Virus record (IMG/VR): IMGVR_UViG_3300021399_003927
Location: 65,492 to 129,491 of that record
Direction: 5' to 3' (one strand)
From: a virus
Taxonomy: Duplodnaviria > Caudoviricetes
DNA length: 64,000 nt
Shown: positions 1,036-61,800 of the stretch, piece by piece
How the letters are laid out: every line of letters begins with the position of its first letter
Position numbering within the stretch: position 1 is the stretch's first letter
The notes under the pieces: generated by a model
Told to the model about the DNA's origin: nothing
Seen by the model: only the letters and a program-made list of their open reading frames with translations
Database searches by the model: none
Translations under genes and position numbers: made by a program

Positions 1036-1820
1036 AAGACTGAGAATGTTGTCTTATTGTTGATGCCATCACACAACGGTTGGACGTTGCTCTTCACACG
1101 CTGCCTTACAGCAGACGTAGACACCATGCACGATGATTTTGCGAAAACCACCCAAAAAACTTACTAGTTTAAACCTCTCGGTGCAGCATCATAGCTTTCA
1201 GTTCTTCGCCAAGCTCTTGCGGATTCATAGGATGCCTCCTATTAACTCAGACGAGTACTTTTACACGCTCATTGAATTCCTTGCGAGTCCTCAATGTCTT
1301 CATATTGCAGAAGAATAAGTGCATTTTAGCTGCCTAGTGTCGCACACTTTTGCTACTCTAAAAACTGTTTGAACCTTATTTCAAATTTTTTAAATTCCGC
1401 TGACCTTGGAAGACGAGGTGCGACCCATCGCATTCGTACCTTTTGAGTACGACCCACGAAATCGCCTTCCTACAAAGACTCACCACAAGTCCAATTGTTG
1501 TTATCTGCTATCAGCCTTACGGTTCTCACGCCTTTCAGCGCAAGACTAGCGAATAACTAAACCCAACACGCCAACTGGTGATTATTGCATCGAGTTCAGC
1601 ACAGTAATCTATTGTGTCACCACTCATCCAAAGACTCCTCACCCTTGGAAGCCTACACCTATGGTGTTACCCACGATGTAGACAGTACCATGCTCTTTTC
1701 AGTGAAATGCCTCAGTCACCCAAGACATCTGCAACGCTACTTGGTCAATTTCACGCCACATTTATCCTATTACTAGATTATCCTTAATGGCTACGAAAGC
1801 TAGCAAAACCCCTTGCGAGA
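1036..1820 (-). ncRNA. GOLLD-like large structured RNA (~780 nt)
   Basis: GC-elevated, no credible ORF, many hairpins with GNRA loops (GCAA, GAAA, GTAA), GTACTCAAAAGGTAC hairpin, ends ...ATTCTCAGTC-TTTT, lies inside a phage tRNA array; boundaries approximate. Confidence 0.55.
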
Positions 1821-2896: not shown

Positions 2897-2916
2897 TTGT
2901 CCATCAATTTGTTAAG

Positions 2917-3274
2917 TGGAGCTAGAGTGAATCGAACACTCGTCCATACTACCATCCCATAAGAGATTACACAAGCTTTAAAATTGGAAAGTTGACATTG
3001 CTGTCCTCACCGCCACCTCATTTTGCGAAAACGAGGAAAACTAGGGGGATGACTAGAGTCATCAGTCCACCATTCGGTTTCAAAAAACCGACAAAAAGTT
3101 GCATGGATGTTCTGTTCCTAAGAGCCATGCCTCTCGGCTCACATTACGCTGCTACAGCGTACTCGTAAGCAGGAGAATCAACATTCTCGCCGTTTATATT
3201 TTTTTGCTATTTCTAGTGTATGCCCACTGCTTGTCTCTTACCAAATGTATAGCTGTCTATACCATTGTAGCCCC
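2917..3274 (-). ncRNA. ssrA: tmRNA, tag peptide GENVDSPAYEYAVAA (3144-3191)
   Basis: 5' GGGGCTA...GAC, 3' T arm + TAGCTCCA with G3-U70; resume codon after ATAAAC; tag ends AVAA*. Confidence 0.93.
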
Positions 3275-4173: not shown

Positions 4174-4280
4174 AACAATAAATGTAAGCATAATAATTTT
4201 TTATTAGTTAGACATTTGAATTAACAATGCAAAGATATATAAAATATTTGAAACTTCCAAATTTTATTCCTTAAAAAATG

Positions 4281-4952
4281 TTACCATTTGTCTATATTGT
4301 CAGCTACCCATTGTTTTACTTCTTTCTTTTCGTATTCCTCTTGGATTGCGTCAGCGTCAGCAGCATCAAACTCATCTTCCAATTCACTTTCATCAAACTG
4401 AACATGCAATCCATATTTTTTCTTATGAGGCTTTTTGCAAGTTTCTTGTTTGCATATTACTGCATTCTTGCCGTCACCCCAACGGTATTGTAGCCACCCT
4501 TCGTATTCTCCAGTGTCAAATAAATATCCTTTTGGAATTTCATCATCACCTCTGAAAAAATCATCAAGCATTTCTAGCCCAATGCGTACAGTTCCGCGCC
4601 ATGTTTTCATAACATTGCGATGATATTGGTAAATACCATCACCGCCTATTTTTAATATCTTGCTTTTTTCAAAATCAAGAACCAAATATCCCCAAAAACG
4701 GCTTTCAATTTTAAACTCCCAAATTTCTTCATGCCATTTGGAGCGCAAATTAGGAACTTTATATGGCCTTGGCGTGTCCGCATAGACCTCTTCTATGAGG
4801 TTAACCTCTTCCTTCCATTCAGCTTCGGTATCAAATTCTGTCTCAGAATGAGAATATTCCTTCAAATTATACAAATCTTGCATATCCCTAGCTGTAGGGG
4901 ATTTGCCCCACATGGAAAAAATTACCATATATCTTTTTGTATGCTTTTTCAT
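4281..4952 (-). CDS. Hypothetical protein
   Basis: 223-aa ORF, start overlaps the upstream stop. Confidence 0.8.
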   Translation of the reverse strand: MKKHTKRYMVIFSMWGKSPTARDMQDLYNLKEYSHSETEFDTEAEWKEEVNLIEEVYADTPRPYKVPNLRSKWHEEIWEFKIESRFWGYLVLDFEKSKILKIGGDGIYQYHRNVMKTWRGTVRIGLEMLDDFFRGDDEIPKGYLFDTGEYEGWLQYRWGDGKNAVICKQETCKKPHKKKYGLHVQFDESELEDEFDAADADAIQEEYEKKEVKQWVADNIDKW

Positions 4953-13648: not shown

Positions 13649-13771
13649 TGTTAATATGGTTATTTAAAAATTTCACAATGCAAAGATATAAAAAATATCT
13701 TTAATTCCCAAATTTTTTCAGAAGTTTTTAAAAAAAAATTCAAAAAATTCAAGTATTTGAACTATTTTTTG

Positions 13772-13859
13772 TATAGGGGGTGGGAGTCGAACCCACAACT
13801 ATCTTTCGATAGACTGGTTTCGTAGACCAGGACGGTCATCCATTACGTTTTACCCCTAC
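13772..13859 (-). tRNA. tRNA-Arg(ACG) with long variable arm
   Basis: CTGGT-CTACGAA-ACCAG; V arm CTATC-GAAA-GATAG. Confidence 0.85.
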
Positions 13860-13865
13860 ATAAAA

Positions 13866-14024
13866 AGGAACGACCAATTTTATGTCTTGGCTCGACATTC
13901 GCTCTTACTTAAGGAGCATAGGTAAGTGCCTCGCAATGATGATTTAACGCTTCTCTTACCCTTGTCTAGTCTGAATTAAAAAATGTTGTTCGTGTAAATT
14001 TTAATCAAACTGCTGTACGTTCCT
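13866..14024 (-). ncRNA. ACAGCA-stem RNA 4 (non-tRNA multi-hairpin cargo)
   Basis: AGGAACGT-ACAGCAG ... CGTTCCT; internal GGTAAG/CTTACC, GCTC/GAGC, ATGTC/GACAT. Confidence 0.7.
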
Positions 14025-14067
14025 ACTGACACGCAGCTAGGCGCAACTGGGCTTCCTAGATACGATG

Positions 14068-14602
14068 TACATCCGCTGGGACTCGAACCCAGAACCTACG
14101 GCTTCGTACTACTCTATGTTACCATAGCCAAACTTAACAATAACGTATATACGAGGCACATGTCCCCATGCATCCAACCGATGATGCGTTAAATTTGTTG
14201 TAGTCTGGAATACATCTTTACCATATTGAAATTCTTGCGCAAGTTGAGCGTGCTTTATACGTTTACACTACTATACACGGTTGAGTATCTTATTGCCTCT
14301 CAATTTCAACTTAGGTATCTCCTATATACTCTCTACACATTTATGAGAATCTTTCACTATCCATCTTCTTCCATTTTATTGATGGCTCTTCTCAATTTAG
14401 CACGGTATAATCCTTACACATTATTGGTTAGTGTGTTTTTCATAAGCGATTGGGCATCTTTGTGTTCCAATGTAACTTCAACTTATTACTCTAACTTAAA
14501 AGAACTTCCACCGTTTTAGGGAGATTCTACTATGGGATTTCTCGCCATAGCATCCAATTTTACATAGAAGGCCGTTGCTCTAATCCATTGAGCTACGGAT
14601 GC
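14068..14602 (-). tRNA. tRNA-Arg(TCT) interrupted by a group I intron (exons 14566-14602 and 14068-14104)
   Basis: Joined exons give ACGGC-CTTCT|AA-GCCGT and a complete cloverleaf. Confidence 0.92.
14105..14565 (-). mobile_element. Group I intron (461 nt) at tRNA position 36/37
   Basis: Exon ends in U paired to G in P1 (TCT|A with TGGA); terminal G; P7 GAGTAT/GTATTC in GTAGAGAGTATA and AAGATGTATTCC. Confidence 0.88.
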
Positions 14603-14969
14603 ATTTACATTAACTCAATGTTGGGTCATTTTTGGGGTCGTAGTCATCGTGCAAAAAAGGCTCTGTTGGTGGAACTTCTACTGCATTGCGAAATTCATAC
14701 ACCATTATGCCTATAAATGCTACTAAAAACGCCAATACGATTATTCCAATTATTCTCATTTTTATTTATTTCTTTTTTTAGAATATTCTTCCAACTCTTC
14801 TTTAAAGGATTTCATTTTTTCCTTTTTACTTGGACGTTTCTTAGGGGAAAAACAAACTAGCATAATAAGCATGTATCCCCATATAAACAAAAATAAAATA
14901 AATAGTAACCTTCCCATAACATTTTCTATTTACGTTGCAAATATATGAAAAAAAATTGAAATAGCCAAA

Positions 14970-15992
14970 TTATTTTGACCTTTTTAACTTATTTCTATAC
15001 CAATTTTTCAAAATATCATAAATTCCTTTATTTCTTTTAACAAATATATCACCTTGTGGAATCTCCTTTGATGAATATTTTTTGAAACTACCTCTAGCAG
15101 TACCATTTTCCTCATTCCATCTTCCAATGACCCTTCTCATTTTCTTAATCAAATAAGAAATGTTGGCATCGCATAATTTAAAATAGTTTTTTGGTTCATC
15201 TATTCTCCTAATAGATGCATCAATATATTCTTTTGTGTTATCTTTTGTGTAATAATCATCTTTTGAAACATACACTCGTTTCAACAATTTGTAGTCTTTA
15301 ATTGTACCAGATAGCATTTTATAGGTCTTAGTGTCTCTGATGTCATTTTCATATTGTGACTCCATATACATTTCTTGAACCCACGCATCTATTTCGTCTC
15401 TATCTAATCTATAATATATCCAAGGTATCGTATAATCTACAATTTGTTTAATAGGGGTATTTGCGGCTGAATTAAAACCAAATTTGTTTTCTATTTCTCT
15501 TTGCGCCTTTGAATACTGGGGTGTGATATTAGTACCACCTCTTCTATATGACTGATAAGCATGTTTTATTTCGTGATTAATTGTAGATACAATATAGTTT
15601 TTTTCCCTATGAGGTATAGCATCTGTCATTGCCCACACAAACGAAAATGTTATCACTCTATTACTAGGAGAAAAGTTATTTTTCAAATAGCCATTACTAG
15701 AAATAAAATCCATAACGTCATCAAACGTTTCATTCTGTGGGTTATAATAATACAAATTGACAGTAATTCCATTTAAAAAAGACAATGTTTGAATATTATC
15801 AATATCTAAATTAAATGTTTTACCATATATTTTTTTATCACCAATCTGGAACGTTTGGCTTCTATATTCTCTATGATGTTCATATATCAAATTAAAAATG
15901 GCTATAGATATTTGCATAATATCATTTGACACGCCACCATATTCTAATATTACTTCTTTTACTATGGATTCTATGAGATTATTTTTAATCAT
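14970..15992 (-). CDS. Hypothetical protein with HExxH (zincin-like) motif
   Basis: NHEIKH plus downstream EIDA. Confidence 0.75.
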   Translation of the reverse strand: MIKNNLIESIVKEVILEYGGVSNDIMQISIAIFNLIYEHHREYRSQTFQIGDKKIYGKTFNLDIDNIQTLSFLNGITVNLYYYNPQNETFDDVMDFISSNGYLKNNFSPSNRVITFSFVWAMTDAIPHREKNYIVSTINHEIKHAYQSYRRGGTNITPQYSKAQREIENKFGFNSAANTPIKQIVDYTIPWIYYRLDRDEIDAWVQEMYMESQYENDIRDTKTYKMLSGTIKDYKLLKRVYVSKDDYYTKDNTKEYIDASIRRIDEPKNYFKLCDANISYLIKKMRRVIGRWNEENGTARGSFKKYSSKEIPQGDIFVKRNKGIYDILKNWYRNKLKRSK

Positions 15993-16047
15993 AACAAAAA
16001 TGACATCTATTATTTTAATTTATAATAAATATCATTTTAAACTAAAA

Positions 16048-16369
16048 ATAACTGAATGTGTTGTTACACCAAAGACAACGTATATACTTTACGCCTCACG
16101 ATTCACGTTTACAATTCGACCAAGAATCCAGCAGCGGCTTTAAAGGTTCTCCAACTTGACTTCACGAGCCTCATTCGGTCTTATATTTCAGATTCTCAGA
16201 CTTCGACCTCTCGTCTCTCGCCTATTAGGGATTTGCAACTCCCAAGTTATTTGGATGCACCTAGGGTTTTTATACGAGGTGTAAACCCATAAAACATACT
16301 ACCTCACCACTTACTGAGTACTGTCACTCCTTAGAAGATGGACACTACCAATCCTACTTTTTCAGTTAT
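16048..16369 (-). ncRNA. Candidate ~320-nt structured RNA
   Basis: 9-bp terminal stem ATAACTGAA/TTCAGTTAT, GC-elevated, no credible ORF, directly after tRNA-Leu. Confidence 0.5.
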
Positions 16370-16374
16370 CTATG

Positions 16375-16462
16375 TAGGGTAGAAGGGATTCGAACCCCCA
16401 CAAACCTCTCGGTTTCCACATCCTAAGTGTGGTGCGTCTCAACCTAATTGCGCCACTACCCC
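16375..16462 (-). tRNA. tRNA-Leu(TAG)
   Basis: CCACA-CTTAGGA-TGTGG, long V arm. Confidence 0.92.
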
Positions 16463-16475
16463 ATAATAAAAACTC

Positions 16476-16602
16476 GGAAACAATTGTTTTTAGACTGCCG
16501 TGTTTAGCCACTCCACCAACTTTCATCTAAGAAAGTGTGGGATTCGAACCCACGAAATCAATTACGATTAGCTGTTTTGAACAAATATTGCTGTTTGTTT
16601 CC
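16476..16602 (-). ncRNA. ACAGCAA-stem RNA 5 with permuted type-II tRNA module
   Basis: GGAAACAA-ACAGCAA ... ACAGC, V arm, T arm, ACTTTC-TTAGAT-GAAAGT (capped acceptor), D arm, GCAGT ... TTGTTTCC. Confidence 0.8.
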
Positions 16603-16630
16603 TTTATAAAAAAAAGCGATTGAATAATTG

Positions 16631-16704
16631 TAGGGGCGATGGATAATGCTCCCACTATCTCATGCTTATAAGGCATGTGCTTTTACTGTCTAAGCTACAC
16701 CCCA
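16631..16704 (-). tRNA. tRNA-Ile(TAT)
   Basis: CATGC-CTTATAA-GCATG; atypical T loop AGCATTA; T1:T72 mismatch. Confidence 0.8.
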
Positions 16705-16898
16705 ATCTTCCAATATGGATAATTCCTCTTTTCAGATTCTGGCGTATCTGTTAATTCATACCTTGCGCCACAGTAAGGACAATGGGCATAAGTCACCATT
16801 GCATCGTCTTCTTCACTCAAATCTTCTCCGTTGATTTCACTGAGCATAAAGTTTCCCTCTAGAATTAGGTCATGCTCACAACGCATACATTTTTCCAT
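16695..16898 (-). CDS. Small Zn-ribbon protein
   Basis: CMRC ... CPYC. Confidence 0.65.
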   Translation of the reverse strand: MEKCMRCEHDLILEGNFMLSEINGEDLSEEDDAMVTYAHCPYCGARYELTDTPESEKRNYPYWKIGV

Positions 16899-16916
16899 AT
16901 TGAATTAGTTTTATTG

Positions 16917-16988
16917 AGCAGTGTAGGAGATTCGAACTCCCTCCTTGACCTTGGCAAGGTTATATGCTACCATTAACACCAACACTGC
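16917..16988 (-). tRNA. tRNA-Gly(GCC)
   Basis: Loop TTGCCAA, U73. Confidence 0.9.
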
Positions 16989-17157
16989 AAAGTCAGTTTT
17001 TATAACCGTAAAACTGAAAAACTTCCTCCACCTACGATGAGGCAATAGTTTGAATTCCTTCAGGGACTACTGACGTTACGTTGAGCCTCAAATCTCTTTT
17101 GATGGTCTTTTTTAACGTGCAGATAATCTAGCAAGTAGTATGTACACGATATTTTAA

Positions 17158-17303
17158 GGAAACGTTTGTTGTTTATTTTAAGTGCTCTAGCCGACTGAGC
17201 TACCACGCTATGTTATTATAATTTAGCAGCGTGGGCAGGACTCGAACCTGCGACCCCTAGCTTGTAATGCTTTTTTAAACGATATACATTGCTGTACGTT
17301 TCC
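17158..17303 (-). ncRNA. ACAGCAA-stem RNA 6 with permuted tRNA (Val TAC-like)
   Basis: GGAAACGT-ACAGCAA ... TTACAAGCTAG, T arm, CCACGCT-G, AT-rich linker, AGCGTGG, D arm ... CGTTTCC. Confidence 0.82.
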
Positions 17304-17309
17304 ACGTTG

Positions 17310-17867
17310 AGCGAGTGAACGGAATCGAACCGTCATATTCAGCTTGCTTACCACACTATGTTACCATAGCCAAACAAATGCTTCCCTTTCAAGGCATATT
17401 TAACTCTTCTAAGCTCATTTGTCTGTTGTAGTCTGGAATACATCTTTACCATATTGAAATTCTTGCAAGATATATTTGAACATTCTTCCTCTTCTTTTTC
17501 CCAATAGGCTCTATATATTACGCAAAGAGTTGTACGCTATTATCCTCTTGGCAAGTTCAAATATAAATTTCAACTTAGGTATCTCCTATATACTCTCTAC
17601 ACATTTATGAGAATAAACTATTGGTTAAATAGACTTACTTACAAGGTTTTTCCTTTTCTTGTACCTATTATTCTCAATTTAGCACGGTATTATCCTTCCC
17701 CATTATTGTTTAGGAGGCACTGATAGTCTTATACAGTACGATTTATTATTATACTACTCGTAAGGACTTCCACCGTTTTAGGGAGATTCTACTATGGGAT
17801 TTCTCGCCATAGCACTTCATTTTCAGTCCTTTGGAGGGCTGACATTCTACCATTGAACTACACTCGC
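17310..17867 (-). tRNA. tRNA-Gly(TCC) interrupted by a group I intron (exons 17834-17867 and 17310-17346)
   Basis: Joined exons give TCAGC-CCTC|CAA-GCTGA, GCGAGTG/CACTCGC+U73. Confidence 0.85.
17347..17833 (-). mobile_element. Group I intron (487 nt) at tRNA position 35/36
   Basis: Core near-identical to the Arg intron; terminal G; exact 5' splice site inferred. Confidence 0.82.
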
Positions 17868-18015
17868 TTGGTGAACTAACTTAGTGATGTTCCACAAATG
17901 TATTTTATGAACACATATATTTAATGAAAAGACAAGAACATCTAGTTTGGTATTAGTTCGTGAGCTGTTTACTTTTCGCAGCAACCGTTTATCTAACTAC
18001 CTACTTTGCAGAAAT

Positions 18016-18031
18016 GAGGAGAATGTAGACA
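18016..18031 (-). promoter_or_regulatory. Putative target site of the guide-loop RNAs
   Basis: TGTCTACATTCTCCTC is complementary to GAGGAGAA+TGTAGACA and overlaps the ATG of an 11-aa ORF (17997-18032). Confidence 0.5.
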
Positions 18032-18106
18032 TTTGATAGTCGATAAACTTGCGGTTTTAACGATTCACCGCCAACGCCTTATTTTTTAGTATTCTCCTAA
18101 AACTCT

Positions 18107-19129
18107 TTACTGAACAGTAGTTGGCTTAACGATTGCCAAACGGTTAAGCTTAACACCCTCACCTACGGCCTTATTAACTCTCACACCACGAGCCTTAAGG
18201 TACTCTGCAACAGCATCTGCTCTGCGCTGTGAAAGCTCCTTGTTATAAGCTTCACTACCCTCTGGTGATGCATATCCGAACACGTCAACGATACCATCTT
18301 GTCCGATTGTGTTAAGAACTGCCTTTGCATCACTTGTAAGCTCTGCGCTATTGAAAGCGAACTCAACCGTCCACTCATTAGTCTTTTCAACAACACGGAA
18401 GATAGGTTTCTCAACAACAACTTGCGTTACAACCGTATCAACTGGATGTAGTCTCTGACACTCATCAAGAGCACCATTGAGTCGGCTAATCTCAGCATTC
18501 ATTGCGCCAATGTCATAAGTCTTGAAGTGATGAGTACCGTTGCTAGTCTTGAAGTGGTATACATAACTTACGTTAAGTGCCAACTGTGAACCACGCTTAT
18601 CAAACTGAATATCACCAAACTTGTGGAGATTCCAATAGATTGCTGGAGTCAAGACCAACGAATGAGCCTTTTTCTTACCAATGTTCCAAGCAAAGTCAAG
18701 ACCTGTCTTAGAACTTAGATAGTTGTTACTTGTGTTCCATGTATGAAGCCAACCGATACCTGCAATTGCACTAACTTCAAACTTCCTAGGAGTACCTTGG
18801 TATCCACCAAATACATTTGACAAATTGAGTGCGCCATTAAGACCTACGTTTGTTGCCTTTACTGATGTCTTGATGTCAGTGAAATGGTTGTCATTCAAAA
18901 ATGCCAAACCTTCTACTTGGAAACCGAATGCTGGAGTGAAATCCTTAGTGAACTTAAGACCAACATTTGTGTTGAGAGGGAAAACTGAGTTGAAGTCAAG
19001 CGGAGTTGAAACGCCACCAGTGATACCGATGCCAATGTTATCAAGTGCTGAACTGTTCTCAGTTGCAATCTGTGCCTTTGCACCAACTACGGCACTAAAA
19101 AGTGCCAACATTAAAATTAATTTTCTCAT
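18107..19129 (-). CDS. OmpA family outer membrane protein
   Basis: Signal peptide, beta-barrel region, C-terminal FAFNS ... GYASPEG ... YNKELSQRRA. Confidence 0.92.
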   Translation of the reverse strand: MRKLILMLALFSAVVGAKAQIATENSSALDNIGIGITGGVSTPLDFNSVFPLNTNVGLKFTKDFTPAFGFQVEGLAFLNDNHFTDIKTSVKATNVGLNGALNLSNVFGGYQGTPRKFEVSAIAGIGWLHTWNTSNNYLSSKTGLDFAWNIGKKKAHSLVLTPAIYWNLHKFGDIQFDKRGSQLALNVSYVYHFKTSNGTHHFKTYDIGAMNAEISRLNGALDECQRLHPVDTVVTQVVVEKPIFRVVEKTNEWTVEFAFNSAELTSDAKAVLNTIGQDGIVDVFGYASPEGSEAYNKELSQRRADAVAEYLKARGVRVNKAVGEGVKLNRLAIVKPTTVQ

Positions 19130-21306: not shown

Positions 21307-21419
21307 GGAATCCTTTAAACTAAGGTAGGTAGGGAGTCGAACCCTAATCTCTTGGTAAAATCCAAGGCTCTACCATTGAGCTACCCATCTGGAGTTTTTA
21401 CCTTATGCTGCAAGATTCC
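21307..21419 (-). ncRNA. RCAGCA-stem RNA 9 enclosing a non-permuted tRNA-like body
   Basis: GGAATCTT-GCAGCAT ... full cloverleaf with 6-nt loop ATTTTA ... GGATTCC. Confidence 0.72.
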
Positions 21420-58802: not shown

Positions 58803-61800
58803 TTAACAAGTAGGATTAGAAGGTGAGAATGTTACTTGACCTCCACTTGATGTTACTTGTTGACTTGCACTGACTGTTATCGTGCCACACTTGCTAACTG
58901 CAATGGTTTTTCCACTACATACACTTCCATTTACATATAATTGTATGGTTGCGCTAGATTTATTGTTAGTTAAAGACGTAATTACTACGTTTCCGTTGCT
59001 AACAGAAGCACCAAAACAACTTGGCTTAGAAGACTGTGCTGTCACAGTACCTCCTGCACAACCTACTAATTCATATGGAACGCTAGCAGTTGATGCGGTT
59101 AATACTACCGAACTAGCACCTAATACCAAGTTGCTACATGCGCAACTAGGTGCATTAGCATATATGTCAACTAAATCAGAAGTATAACAGCAATCTGCTT
59201 CATCTGTAGTTAGCGTCTTATACAACTTATATCCAAGTGTTCCAACCTTTACTGGAAAATCAACATTAGTAAAGTGACTAATATCACCAATCGTTACTTG
59301 AATTGTCGTAACATGGCTAGTTGTGTCCGTGCTAACGCTACAACCATATGCGCTTATCAAGTTTGCTACTACATTGGCATTTCCACAAGGATGAGATATG
59401 GTAAACACTGTGATTGTACTACTAGGCGCACCTGAAGTTGCACCTGTCGTTGTTGTAAACAATCCACAGCTACATCCTGCTGCTTGAGTGAACGTTACAG
59501 TTTTACATAAAGTACCATTCAAGTAGAAGCGGATATATCCAATTCTAACTGCATTGACACCATTCTCTGCGACTTGATAAGTAACCGTCTTAGTTGAAGC
59601 ATAATGGTTAATAGTAATCCAATTAACTGTAGAATAAGCACTGACGCTACCACAATTAGCAGTATACGTTATTGAATCATTTGTTGCTCCTGAACCAACA
59701 CTTTGACTAGTACCAACACTTAAAGCAAAGCTTGAAGTTGAACAGTTACATCCTTGTGCCGCTTGCGTTATACTAAATTCTTTACAAGCACTGCCTCCGT
59801 TTACGCTTAAGTAGAAATGAGCCGTTCTAGAACTAAACGTAGTATTGGTTTGTGCAGTAATACTAAGTTTCAACACACGAGTAGACATATCTATAGTAAC
59901 TGCGGATGTAAACCAAGATGCACTTCCACCAGAAACACGGATGTTTGAGTTGTTAGGACATGTAGAAGATACAATTACTATGTCTCTATATACACCTGAA
60001 CTAGATGGTAATGGGTTGGTAGTTGTGCCAGATGTTTGTCTTACACTTGCTGAAACCACATCACAATTACATGTTTTTGAGTATCTATAGGCGTTAAAAC
60101 TAGCGCAGCAACCTGTATCACCTTGAGTACAAGTTAAACTATCAGTTCCAGTACGTATTGTAACAGTTGTCGTTCCTGTATCGGCTGCATCAAAACCTGT
60201 GCTTGGTAGCAATCTTATATATGCTTTACCTTTGTACAACGTACCACTTGAATTTGTAGTAGTGCTAGTTAAAACTACAGATGAATTACTTCTATCAAGC
60301 AAGCCTGATGATGGATTAGGATTCGTTTCTGACAAGTAGAAATTAGGCGTGCAAGTAGTTGCAGTGTTTGGAACAGCTTTTTGCCACTCTACATAAGCAT
60401 CAGTGTTACCGTCTCCATCAAAAAACATCATAGTGCTAGCAGAAGATGGAACTGTCCAAGCAGTAAATGTTTGCTGGTCACAAGCGCAATCAGGACTTGG
60501 ACATGCGCTTCCTGCACCTTGTACTACTGGGAAGTCATAGTAACATGGATGTCCTTCAAAACCAACCATACCTCTTATGACGCCAGTTCTTGCTGGAGCA
60601 CCACATTGCTGTGCAGTTGCACCTGTAATTGTTACATAATAACTTCTAGAAGTGTCGCTTGTTCCTGTTATGTTGAAATCTGCTCCTTGAACCCAACTTG
60701 GACTTGATACAACGTATATACCAGCTTGTCCGATACAAGAGAAGAAATCAGAACTTGCTTTTCCTCCACTTATTTGTAAACGATTACTTGAACTACCTGT
60801 ATAACCAGTGCTTGGAACAATATTACTGCTATACTCTGTATATACCACGTTTTGACTACATTCACCTATACAATCACATATTGGTAAAGCGTCTTGCTTC
60901 CTTATCATGGTAAACGTACATGAAGTAGTATTACCATAACCATCGTTGTGAGTTCCTGTAAACGTGAAAGTAACACTTCTCTCAGAATTACCACATAACT
61001 GTGCAGTACAGTCTCCTGTTAAGTAATACTCAGTGTTCATGTAACTTTCAAGACCTAAAGTATTATCATCTACCCAATTAGCATTACTTGTAATGGAAAT
61101 GTTCGACATACAATTTCCAACTGTTACCATTGGCAATGAGAACGTTGTTGCTGTAGCTGGAATTGTTATTCCACTGTAAGTGCTTTCTGAATGTGCGGTT
61201 AATTGACTACTACAGTTATTACAGCTACAAGAAGTGCGTCCATCTTGCCAAACAGTGAATGTCTTTGCACATGTCAAAGGACTAGTTGCTGCAACACTAT
61301 AGTTAAACGTTACAGTTCCACTTCTAGGGTAAGATGTTTTAAGGCAATCTCTTTCTGCTACTGTTCCCCAAATATACACATTTTTAAGATTGACAGGTGG
61401 ACGAGAAGCAGTATATTGTGTTCCGTTTTCGTCACCATAATAAAGATTTGTAATCCAAGAAACATTAGTGGTAAGTCCTGTTAAATCTATCGTTACACAG
61501 TTTGAAGTAAGACTTATATCACCGTTAAATACCACTTGAGCTAAATTAACAGTACCTCCACTATAAGTAGCACCACTTGATTTTGAAGTTAATGCGAATA
61601 AACTCTCAACTCCGTCATCACAGTCCATGCCTGCACATGGGTTACAACTTGAAGGGTTACCTGCTTGTGTTACGCTTATGGTATCACTTGTACAAGACAA
61701 TCCGTTGCTTAAGTGAGCAATAAGTTTGAAACTGTCAGTTCTAGAAGGACTTTCACAAGCTGAGTTACTAGTAGTATTAGCTGTTACTGTACCATCTGAT

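Follow-up and report, generated by a model that had tools for sequence, protein, structure and literature searches.

A candidate C.A pair at the 5' splice site of a group I intron in a phage tRNA-Gly gene, within a family of introns in phage tRNA anticodon loops

Two split transfer RNA (tRNA) genes, tRNA-Gly(UCC) and tRNA-Arg(UCU), were analysed in a stretch of viral DNA of 64,000 nucleotides (nt), positions 65,492 to 129,491 of the IMG/VR record IMGVR_UViG_3300021399_003927. The whole stretch is called the window below. Each gene is interrupted in its anticodon loop by an intron that we conclude, from a structure model, to be a group I intron. The G.U wobble at the 5' splice site is a textbook recognition element of group I ribozymes. 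In the Gly gene, the best-supported register of the cut site places a C.A pair there instead, and this C.A splice site is probably functional. The full account that we propose is more tentative and falls a little short of an even chance. According to it, the G.U of the reactive pair has given way to an A+.C wobble that is natural and functional. It would have arisen when an intron aimed at CUU|C jumped to CUC|C and its guide was repaired from GAG to AAG, within an undescribed, module-shuffling intron family that occupies phage tRNA anticodon loops at four positions. The window makes up the second half of a virus record of 129,491 bases, whose completeness is 44% by CheckV. It holds 26 genes for tRNA or transfer-messenger RNA (tmRNA) by ARAGORN, all of them on the minus strand. 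The host of the introns is a large gut phage, and the family is one of big gut and rumen phages.

Both split genes and all of their parts lie on the minus strand. The 5' exon of tRNA-Arg (14602-14566) ends in ...CCTTCT with U36 at 14566. It is followed by an intron of 461 nt (14565-14105, omega G at 14105) inserted at site 36/37, and by a 3' exon (14104-14068) that begins with AAGCC and has A37 at 14104. The 5' exon of tRNA-Gly comprises positions 1-35 (17867-17834) and ends in ...CAGCCCTC, with C33 at 17836, U34 at 17835 and C35, the -1 nucleotide, at 17834. Its intron of 487 nt (17833-17347), inserted at site 35/36, begins with CAAAGG and ends in ...GTGGTAAG, the last base being G17347. The 3' exon through the discriminator (17346-17310) begins with CAAGCTGA, and C36 is at 17346. 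Of the two coordinates by which the initial annotation had marked the region, 14105 is where the Arg intron ends and 17833 is where the Gly intron starts. The tRNA-Gly has the acceptor stem GCGAGTG/CACTCGC, the anticodon stem TCAGC/GCTGA and the loop CCTC|CAA. When the exons were joined in silico at these sites, ARAGORN returned clean cloverleaf tRNA-Gly(tcc) and tRNA-Arg(tct). The intron-permitting mode of ARAGORN detects the Arg gene directly as i(38,461). For the Gly gene it proposes a 95-nt tRNA-Trp(cca) containing an intron of 464 nt, which was rejected because the conserved P9.1 hairpin is misused there as a variable arm. Both introns had been described as free of open reading frames (ORFs), and indeed no ATG-started ORF of more than 34 amino acids is present on the sense strand of either. 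No endonuclease was found among the five ORFs neighbouring the window introns.

The cut sites were read against relatives of the two introns. These were gathered by two exact-block scans of IMG/VR (36 loci) and, together with the copies of the own genome, amount to 40 copies from 37 sources. Twenty-seven complete members were parsed and 26 entered the alignment. The terminal G is the ninth base after the P9.1 hairpin (CATAG) in 22/22 members that were found without a condition on the tail, and the same holds for all three copies of the own genome. As in group I introns generally, the terminal G is positioned by P9.0. The P9.0 pair before it (columns 944/1629) is UA in 12, CG in 9 and UG in 5 members and is unpaired in none. 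Because this register is fixed across the family, G17347 is the last base of the Gly intron and the 3' exon starts with CAA. With this 3' exon, a 7-base loop requires that the 5' exon end at C35.

The guide gives the same position from the other side. In every member, the guide triplet is placed one nucleotide plus GC before P2, and it tracks the exon. The combinations are GGA with TCT| in Arg 36/37, GAG with CTT| in Leu, Ser and Arg 34/35, GGT with ACT| in Leu 33/34, GTG with CAT| at 36/37 and GCA with TGT| in Tyr 35/36. Across six different guides the triplet covaries with exon positions -1 to -3, and the bases 5' of the triplet pair with the first bases of the 3' exon, which is the P1/P10 arrangement of group I introns. 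An automatic parse anchored on the acceptor stem gave sensible tRNAs for 20 of the 27 complete members; five were unparsed and two with truncated exons were parsed spuriously. Among the 20 tRNAs, the pair at -1 is U.G in 19 and C.A in one, which is the Gly gene of the window. Their -2 pairs are CG, TA or GC and their -3 pairs are TA, CG or AT. Nine more tRNA members were read by eye and all have U.G (L003, L018, L024, L025, L026, L036, L037, L042 and L046). Altogether, U.G occupies the cut site in 28/29 tRNA members, and Gly, with A opposite C35, is the sole exception. The first guide base is G in 32/40 copies, and the eight exceptions are seven members outside recognisable tRNAs and Gly.

The internal guide of the Gly intron, TGAAG (17819-17815, minus strand), stands at the same distance from P2 as the G-first triplets of the relatives. 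In its AAG, G17815 pairs with C33, A17816 pairs with U34 and A17817 is opposite C35 (17834). The preceding G17818 and T17819 pair with intron bases C+1 and A+2 in P1 and later with exon bases C36 and A37 in P10, as in the relatives. The Arg guide TGGA (14556-14553) pairs with TCT|A and forms the canonical U36.G14554. Thus U.G at the 5' splice site is present in Arg and absent in Gly. The initial annotation had proposed both arrangements, Arg split at 36/37 with TCT|A on TGGA and Gly split at 35/36 after a C with CTC|CA on TGAAG and C.A at the junction. The guide pairings are as described there, and in Gly the aligned terminal G and the guide register of the family put C35 opposite A17817. Two non-standard pairs elsewhere in the family were also seen. 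In the Leu(TAA) member L038 (2228-3050), C33 is opposite the A of the guide GAG at P1 position -2, and L023 has an A.C mismatch in its anticodon stem.

Evidence on activity came from sequencing runs of the source sample. The RNA run X2 is from the same sample as the DNA run X1, in which this DNA is best represented, and contigs, not reads, were examined. Exact contigs of X2 over the Gly-specific arms have depths of 191.7 (17443-17614) and 116.3 (17585-17791), and their neighbours have 4.1 and 6.2. In the X1 DNA, the same pieces have depths of 29-30 versus 24-25. Gly intron-specific RNA is thereby 19-47 times above its flanks in X2, a figure that rests on per-contig depth, which is a poor measure, and the result is a hint that the Gly intron RNA is enriched in the same sample. 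Ribozyme activity in that sample is indicated for a sibling. This is the third copy in the same genome, which lies outside the window at about 60230-60800 of G000:C1 (L003 1332-1930, minus strand) in a tRNA with the anticodon CAT. It is split at 36/37, has the guide GTG and a U.G cut site, and measures 599 nt from the guide triplet to the terminal G. In one contig of X2, the first 24 nt of this CAT intron follow directly on its last 6 nt; this is the joint of a full-length circle. The full-length intron circle is a known side product of group I catalysis. Since the circle junction fixes them, both ends of the CAT intron are as predicted. Similar joints of the 3' end to the P1 loop were found for relatives in the runs X9 and X11.

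The strongest competitor of a functional C.A site is a Gly intron that splices poorly or is dead. Its C.A would then be a mere mismatch, and little or no mature tRNA-Gly would be made. We consider this unlikely, but several results have to be counted against splicing at C.A. Gly is the sole 1/29 tRNA members without U.G, and a non-wobble pair at the cut site inactivates the Tetrahymena intron (Williams 2020, bioRxiv 10.1101/2020.01.27.920355). By nearest-neighbour energies, P1 of Gly is weak (+2.4 kcal/mol versus -1.5 kcal/mol for Arg), and a local hairpin of -2.5 kcal/mol competes with it. Among the joints listed from the contigs, neither the ligated Gly exon junction nor a Gly circle junction was found, which on its own weighs neither way. 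A second Gly-type intron was not met with either. Its 3' junction pattern had 0 matches in viral contigs and its 5' exon plus guide pattern had 0 matches in metagenome contigs. A relaxed 3' junction pattern had 3 matches in metagenome contigs, none of them in tRNA-Gly. A scan for A-first guides gave one viral match, L014, outside a recognisable tRNA. In addition, decayed settings do exist in the family, namely the truncated 5' exons of L039, L044 and L040b and the free-standing intron of L029. On the other hand, every core block of the Gly intron agrees fully with the family consensus although its arms can no longer be aligned, a contrast that speaks for selection on the ribozyme. Each exon is complete, and together they fold as a normal tRNA. 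The guide fits the Gly exon at -2, -3, +1 and +2, that is at all positions besides the first, which would be needless in a decaying copy. The depth of the intron RNA over its flanks in the library of the same sample also speaks for a living intron.

It is improbable that splicing occurs after C35 with P1 slipped by one base, so that the cut-site pair would be a Watson-Crick C-G. In this register C32 pairs with G17815, C33 is opposite A17816, U34 pairs with A17817 and C35 pairs with G17818. The pairing is possible on paper, and a natural class of 72 tRNA-Leu introns has C(-1):G (Leu.3Cg, Williams 2020). However, the reactive pair would be one step off the register of all 28 U.G relatives, and P10 would be lost since C36 would face T17819. 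The slipped register is also worse than the C.A register by 1.5 kcal/mol (+3.9 versus +2.4, nearest-neighbour). A cut after U34, the only U next to the anticodon, by some other guide pairing is far less probable still. U at -1 is the rule in the family (28/29) and in 98.5% of bacterial tRNA introns (Williams 2020), but the terminal G fixed at 17347 (22/22 register) would leave a 6-nt loop without C35. Furthermore, no G of the guide region pairs with U34 while its neighbours stay paired, and intronless relatives of this tRNA have the loop CCTCCAA.

The identity of the two elements as group I introns was assessed with a hand-built model of P1-P10 applied to the 26 complete introns aligned by MAFFT. 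The model has 64 pairs in 12 helices and includes P2, the P3-P8 core, P9.0, P9 and P9.1. The core helices follow the order P3 P4 P5 P5' P4' P6 P6' P7 P3' P8 P8' P7', so that the double pseudoknot characteristic of group I introns is formed. Standard pairs fill 94.5% of the 1657 model cells versus 37.9-45.5% when the partners are slid by 1-3 columns. Changes on both sides occur at 21 pairs, the shuffle mean being 12.7, and 0/500 shuffles reach any of the five measures. The covariation is borne by P2, P6, P9 and P9.0, with a single double change each in P3 and P7. As a point on the other side, P4, P7 and P8 are nearly invariant and thus compatible with the model but unproven by covariation.

In the Gly intron (all on the minus strand), the P2 hairpin CTATGG...CCATAG occupies 17812-17792, and 4/6 of its pairs vary on both sides across relatives. 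The core modelled at 17787-17581 opens with P3 (ATCTCC 17787-17782 with GGAGAT 17586-17581) and P4 (ACGGT 17776-17772 with ACCGT 17688-17684). It continues with the joining segment J4/5 (GGAAG 17771-17767), P5 (TCCTT/AAGGA plus a variable arm) and P6 (TGAGAA 17676-17671 with TTCTCA 17613-17608, plus a variable arm). P7 (G[A]GAGTA 17597-17591 with TATTCC 17440-17435) encloses P3' and P8 (17579-17566 with 17462-17449), and J8/7 is TAAAGATG at 17448-17441. The 3' domain (17431-17347) consists of P9.0 (CTACA 17431-17427 with TGTGG 17355-17351), P9 (17425-17416 with 17380-17371), P9.1 (CTATG-GTAA-CATAG, 17369-17356) and the tail TAAG, which terminates in the omega G. In P7, the G-C pair adjoining the bulged A is invariant in 24/26 rows; it is presumed to be the guanosine-binding site. 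An earlier P7 pairing of TGTGTAG with CTACAACA was dropped, because the T/C variation of CTACA is uncompensated in it and covaries with the base before the terminal G, as P9.0.

The comparison with Rfam, which the initial annotation had named as a check, turned out differently for the window introns and for a relative. No Intron_gpI match was present in the whole window at the gathering score. At E <= 10, none was present on 13700-18200 or on the 511-nt Gly-intron stretch alone. These absences count against the assignment. The compact relative L185, in contrast, scores on RF00028 Intron_gpI with 36.1 bits (E 8.3e-7), which is below the gathering score of 50. L185 and the window introns share the blocks GTGTAGAGA.TATA, AAGA..TA.TCCAGACTACAAC and GCTATGG.AACATAG.GT, which are the motifs of P7, of J8/7-P7'-P9.0 and of P9.1. 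Through L185, the P7 strands G[A]GAGTA/TATTCC align with the AGACUA/UAGUC stretches of the Rfam consensus. The proposal that both elements are group I introns is therefore upheld by the structure model, the covariation and the homology to an Rfam-scoring relative. By analogy to bacterial tRNA introns, and considering the tRNA setting and the motifs in common with L185, the subgroup is likely IC3. It is very improbable that the elements are another kind of insertion or repeat, or that A17817 is an assembly error; the lack of an Rfam match would fit, as would the absence of the P1-P2 stretch 17792-17833 from the exact contigs listed for the source DNA, but the structure statistics, the scoring of L185, an HNH endonuclease in the member L021 and the RNA circle junctions oppose the former, and X1 shows a single changed place in the whole stretch, G>T, which opposes the latter. 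As a separate observation, L183 and L185 are metagenome contigs in which the compact relative of about 185 nt lies within an apparent protein-coding region with repeated N-rich codons. They adjoin a weak match to the RT-14 RNA (36.4 bits, E 0.016), and the context may be that of a retroelement.

If the Gly intron splices at C.A as proposed, P1 would be formed by the guide 5'-UGAAG-3' with C33-U34-C35 and the first two bases of the intron. In it, A17817 would face C35, presumably in the form of an A+.C wobble, protonated and isosteric with G.U. A free guanosine held at the G-C pair of P7 would attack after C35. The guide would then hold C36-A37 as P10, and P9.0 would bring G17347 into the same site. 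Finally, C35 would attack after G17347, yielding tRNA-Gly(UCC) with the loop CCUCCAA. As for the origin, a single base separates the Gly site CUC|CA from CUU|CU, the site of Arg 34/35, and a single base likewise separates the guide ..TG-AAG of Gly from the guides ..G-GAG of Arg 34/35 (L018, L031 and L034). Since site and guide each differ by one base, entry into a look-alike site followed by a G-to-A change in the guide is suggested. We infer that an intron with the guide ..UG-GAG, targeting CUU|C as the Arg 34/35 members do, likely entered the look-alike CUC|C. A tRNA-Gly of the C33 type would have offered this look-alike one position to the 3' side. One G-to-A mutation of the guide would then have converted the cut-site pair from a Watson-Crick C-G to a C.A of wobble shape.

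The initial annotation had also predicted that spliced tRNA-Gly would have an unusual C33. The joined loop is CCTCCAA and does have C at position 33, but the implied link of C33 with the intron did not hold up. An intronless tRNA-Gly with the same 5' half and the loop CCTCCAA is present in L047, a viral contig of 153 kb. Four contigs of the source-sample DNA run X1 hold an uninterrupted tRNA-Gly of a relative with this loop. The same loop was found in tRNA-Gly(tcc) of 17 further viral contigs with at least 7 different sequences. C33 is native to the lineage of this tRNA-Gly, because the loop CCTCCAA is also found in relatives without an intron. A tRNA-Gly(tcc) with the loop CTTCCAA occurs in at least 118 viral contigs. 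Judging from these gene sequences, C33 is a minority but recurrent trait of phage tRNA-Gly(UCC).

The Arg and Gly introns had been said to share long identical core blocks and to differ in periphery and guide, and this is the case. Two blocks of 49 nt and one of 43 nt are the same in both, a further block of 27 nt differs at one position, and over aligned columns the identity of the two introns is 275/397 = 69%. Four stretches between the blocks are unalignable, and these coincide exactly with the loops L5, L6, L8 and L9, the usual places of extensions in group I introns. A chance resemblance of the two introns is excluded because the same blocks recur in 40 places from 37 sources. The family members measure 444-1085 nt. 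Their sites in the phage tRNA anticodon loop are 33/34, 34/35, 35/36 and 36/37, and eight tRNA/site settings are covered (Leu 33/34, Leu 34/35, Ser 34/35, Arg 34/35, Tyr 35/36, Gly 35/36, Arg 36/37 and CAT 36/37). Eight members split Arg(TCT) at 36/37 and three split it at 34/35, and therefore retargeting is common. The view of the initial annotation that guides have been retargeted between tRNA genes thus applies family-wide, but its description of the Arg and Gly introns as sisters, with a recent movement between these two genes, does not fit the tree and the arms. The intron tree is star-like with 2/24 inner branches well supported, so no donor intron can be named. The Gly intron groups with the Leu(TAA) 33/34 intron of L016, another phage contig (support 100/99); their P6 arms are identical and their P5, P8 and P9 arms are different. 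The Arg intron has its P6 and P9 arms in common with the Tyr(GTA) 35/36 intron of L040. The family is a pool of conserved cores that swap arms, presumably by recombination in the identical blocks.

Further members show what has been inserted into or lost around such cores. The intron of L021 (3831-4915; Leu 34/35) encodes a NUMOD4-HNH_3-NUMOD1 homing endonuclease in an ORF at 4275-4790. This ORF is inserted in the region of the P7 3' strand between TATT and CC, and in L045 a short stretch is inserted there. L023, L027, L040 (both copies), L043 and L045 have about 57 additional nt, a conserved hairpin pair, between P3' and P8. This insert is common to members in different tRNAs and is another shuffled module. 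In L039, L044 and L040 (820-1332), the intron is followed by a normal tRNA-Arg 3' exon, and the 5' exon is an acceptor strand only, the D arm and the anticodon stem being missing. The arrangement is conserved in the three contigs, and a class-II-like tRNA with the loop CTTCTAA lies just upstream of this truncated setting. In L029 (about 1038-1220, minus strand), a free-standing family intron with the Arg-type guide GGA comes after a tRNA-Arg(TCT) that has no interruption. Seven family cores lie outside recognisable tRNAs (L014, L015, L019, L020, L032, L035 and L041). All seven are without G at the usual guide position, and therefore P1 must be built otherwise. L014, L019, L020, L032 and L041 have a common upstream element, ggtcagtggtggagg...cagcccctaacaa, of which L035 has the first part only and L015 none. 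The six of the seven with that element evidently build P1 differently, as far as their sequences indicate.

Bacterial tRNA genes hold the best-known comparable introns, and 98.5% of these have U(-1) and a terminal G (Williams 2020). In that paper, the sole real exception class comprises 72 proteobacterial Leu introns with a Watson-Crick C:G, and its running text does not mention C.A. U.G is accordingly near-universal and not strictly defining for group I. The phage family resembles the bacterial introns (Leu.3Ug, Arg.5Ug, fMet.2Ug and Ile2.5Ug; IC3; Williams 2020) in its place in the anticodon loop, its 3-bp exon-guide helix and its terminal G. The U.G cut site of Arg and of 28/29 of the family is likewise shared, as are the settings Leu 34/35, Arg 36/37 and CAT 36/37. 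It differs in its phage tRNA hosts, in its long and shuffled P5, P6, P8 and P9 arms, in being undetected by RF00028 and in the added settings Leu 33/34, Arg 34/35, Ser 34/35, Tyr 35/36 and Gly 35/36. Like the Leu.3Cg introns (Williams 2020), the Gly intron is natural and has C before the 5' splice site, and splicing is a prediction in both. Unlike in Leu.3Cg with its C:G, the guide base of Gly is A, so that C.A can keep the wobble geometry, and the site is Gly 35/36. In vitro, G.U in P1 can be substituted by C.A+ (PMC5769748, with reference to Doudna et al. 1989). The engineered Tetrahymena C.A (Doudna, Cormack & Szostak 1989, via PMC5769748) is alike in having C.A+ in place of G.U at the reactive pair of P1. 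It differs in being a laboratory mutant, whereas the Gly pair would be naturally fixed with both guide and exon changed.

Among phage introns, those of crAss-like and Jug gut phages (PMC7886860, PMC12880540) come from the same habitat. HNH endonucleases are present in some members. The P7-P3 block of the window introns is 90-95% identical over about 50 nt to sequences of IAS virus and of the crAss-like phage cr116_1, and the cr116_1 match sits between two DNA primase gene pieces. In contrast to those introns, which are in protein-coding genes (PMC7886860, PMC12880540), the window introns are in tRNA genes, and the main text of PMC12880540 has no occurrence of tRNA. As of 2014, according to a review (PMC3984707), phages had many tRNA genes, yet every group I intron known from them was in a protein-coding gene. 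In the literature searched, which included few subscription journals, neither a natural C.A cut-site pair nor group I introns in phage tRNA genes were found. A 1995 report is said to describe two fungal introns with C.G at the cut site. The phage tRNA intron family seems to be undescribed so far.

If the C.A site is functional, its natural fixation would confirm, from the side of evolution, what was found in vitro in 1989, namely that the shape of the reactive pair is read, not its sequence. The Gly intron would then be a natural substrate for probing the pH dependence of the first step, and the splicing of tRNA-Gly could be pH-sensitive. The design rules for retargetable group I ribozymes, as used in trans-splicing and in circular-RNA production, would also be widened. 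Current rules ask for a pyrimidine that is paired or G-U wobble-paired with the guide (PMC12355055). Beyond the Gly site, phage tRNA genes are heavily colonised at four loop positions with guides tracking their targets. This pattern fits ectopic, guide-directed insertion, for which direct evidence is scarce.

Some other features of the record were noted. At 16086-16358 of the window, RNA contigs are far deeper than the surroundings, with depths of 60.8 in X2, 733.9 in X9 and up to 2443 by bin in X11. This RNA-rich stretch lies just downstream of tRNA-Leu(TAG). It is without an Rfam match, and the fold of 16080-16372 (z +0.68) is no better than those of shuffles. Two permuted tRNA-like modules closed by a long stem are present at 17151-17279 and 16474-16578 (both minus strand). 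They match YrlA (Y RNA-like) with 41 bits (E 8.6e-7) and 16.9 bits, both under the gathering score of 69. No TROVE/Ro60 gene was found in the 129-kb record; the control genome of Bacteroides thetaiotaomicron has one. A phage-encoded tmRNA with the tag GENVDSPAYEYAVAA is located at 2914-3274 (minus strand), and a tRNA-like gene to which ARAGORN assigns a two-base anticodon is at 21322-21390 (minus strand). The gene at 18107-19129 (minus strand) encodes an OmpA-family outer-membrane protein, with an OmpA domain at E 4.6e-11 and a weak beta-barrel match.

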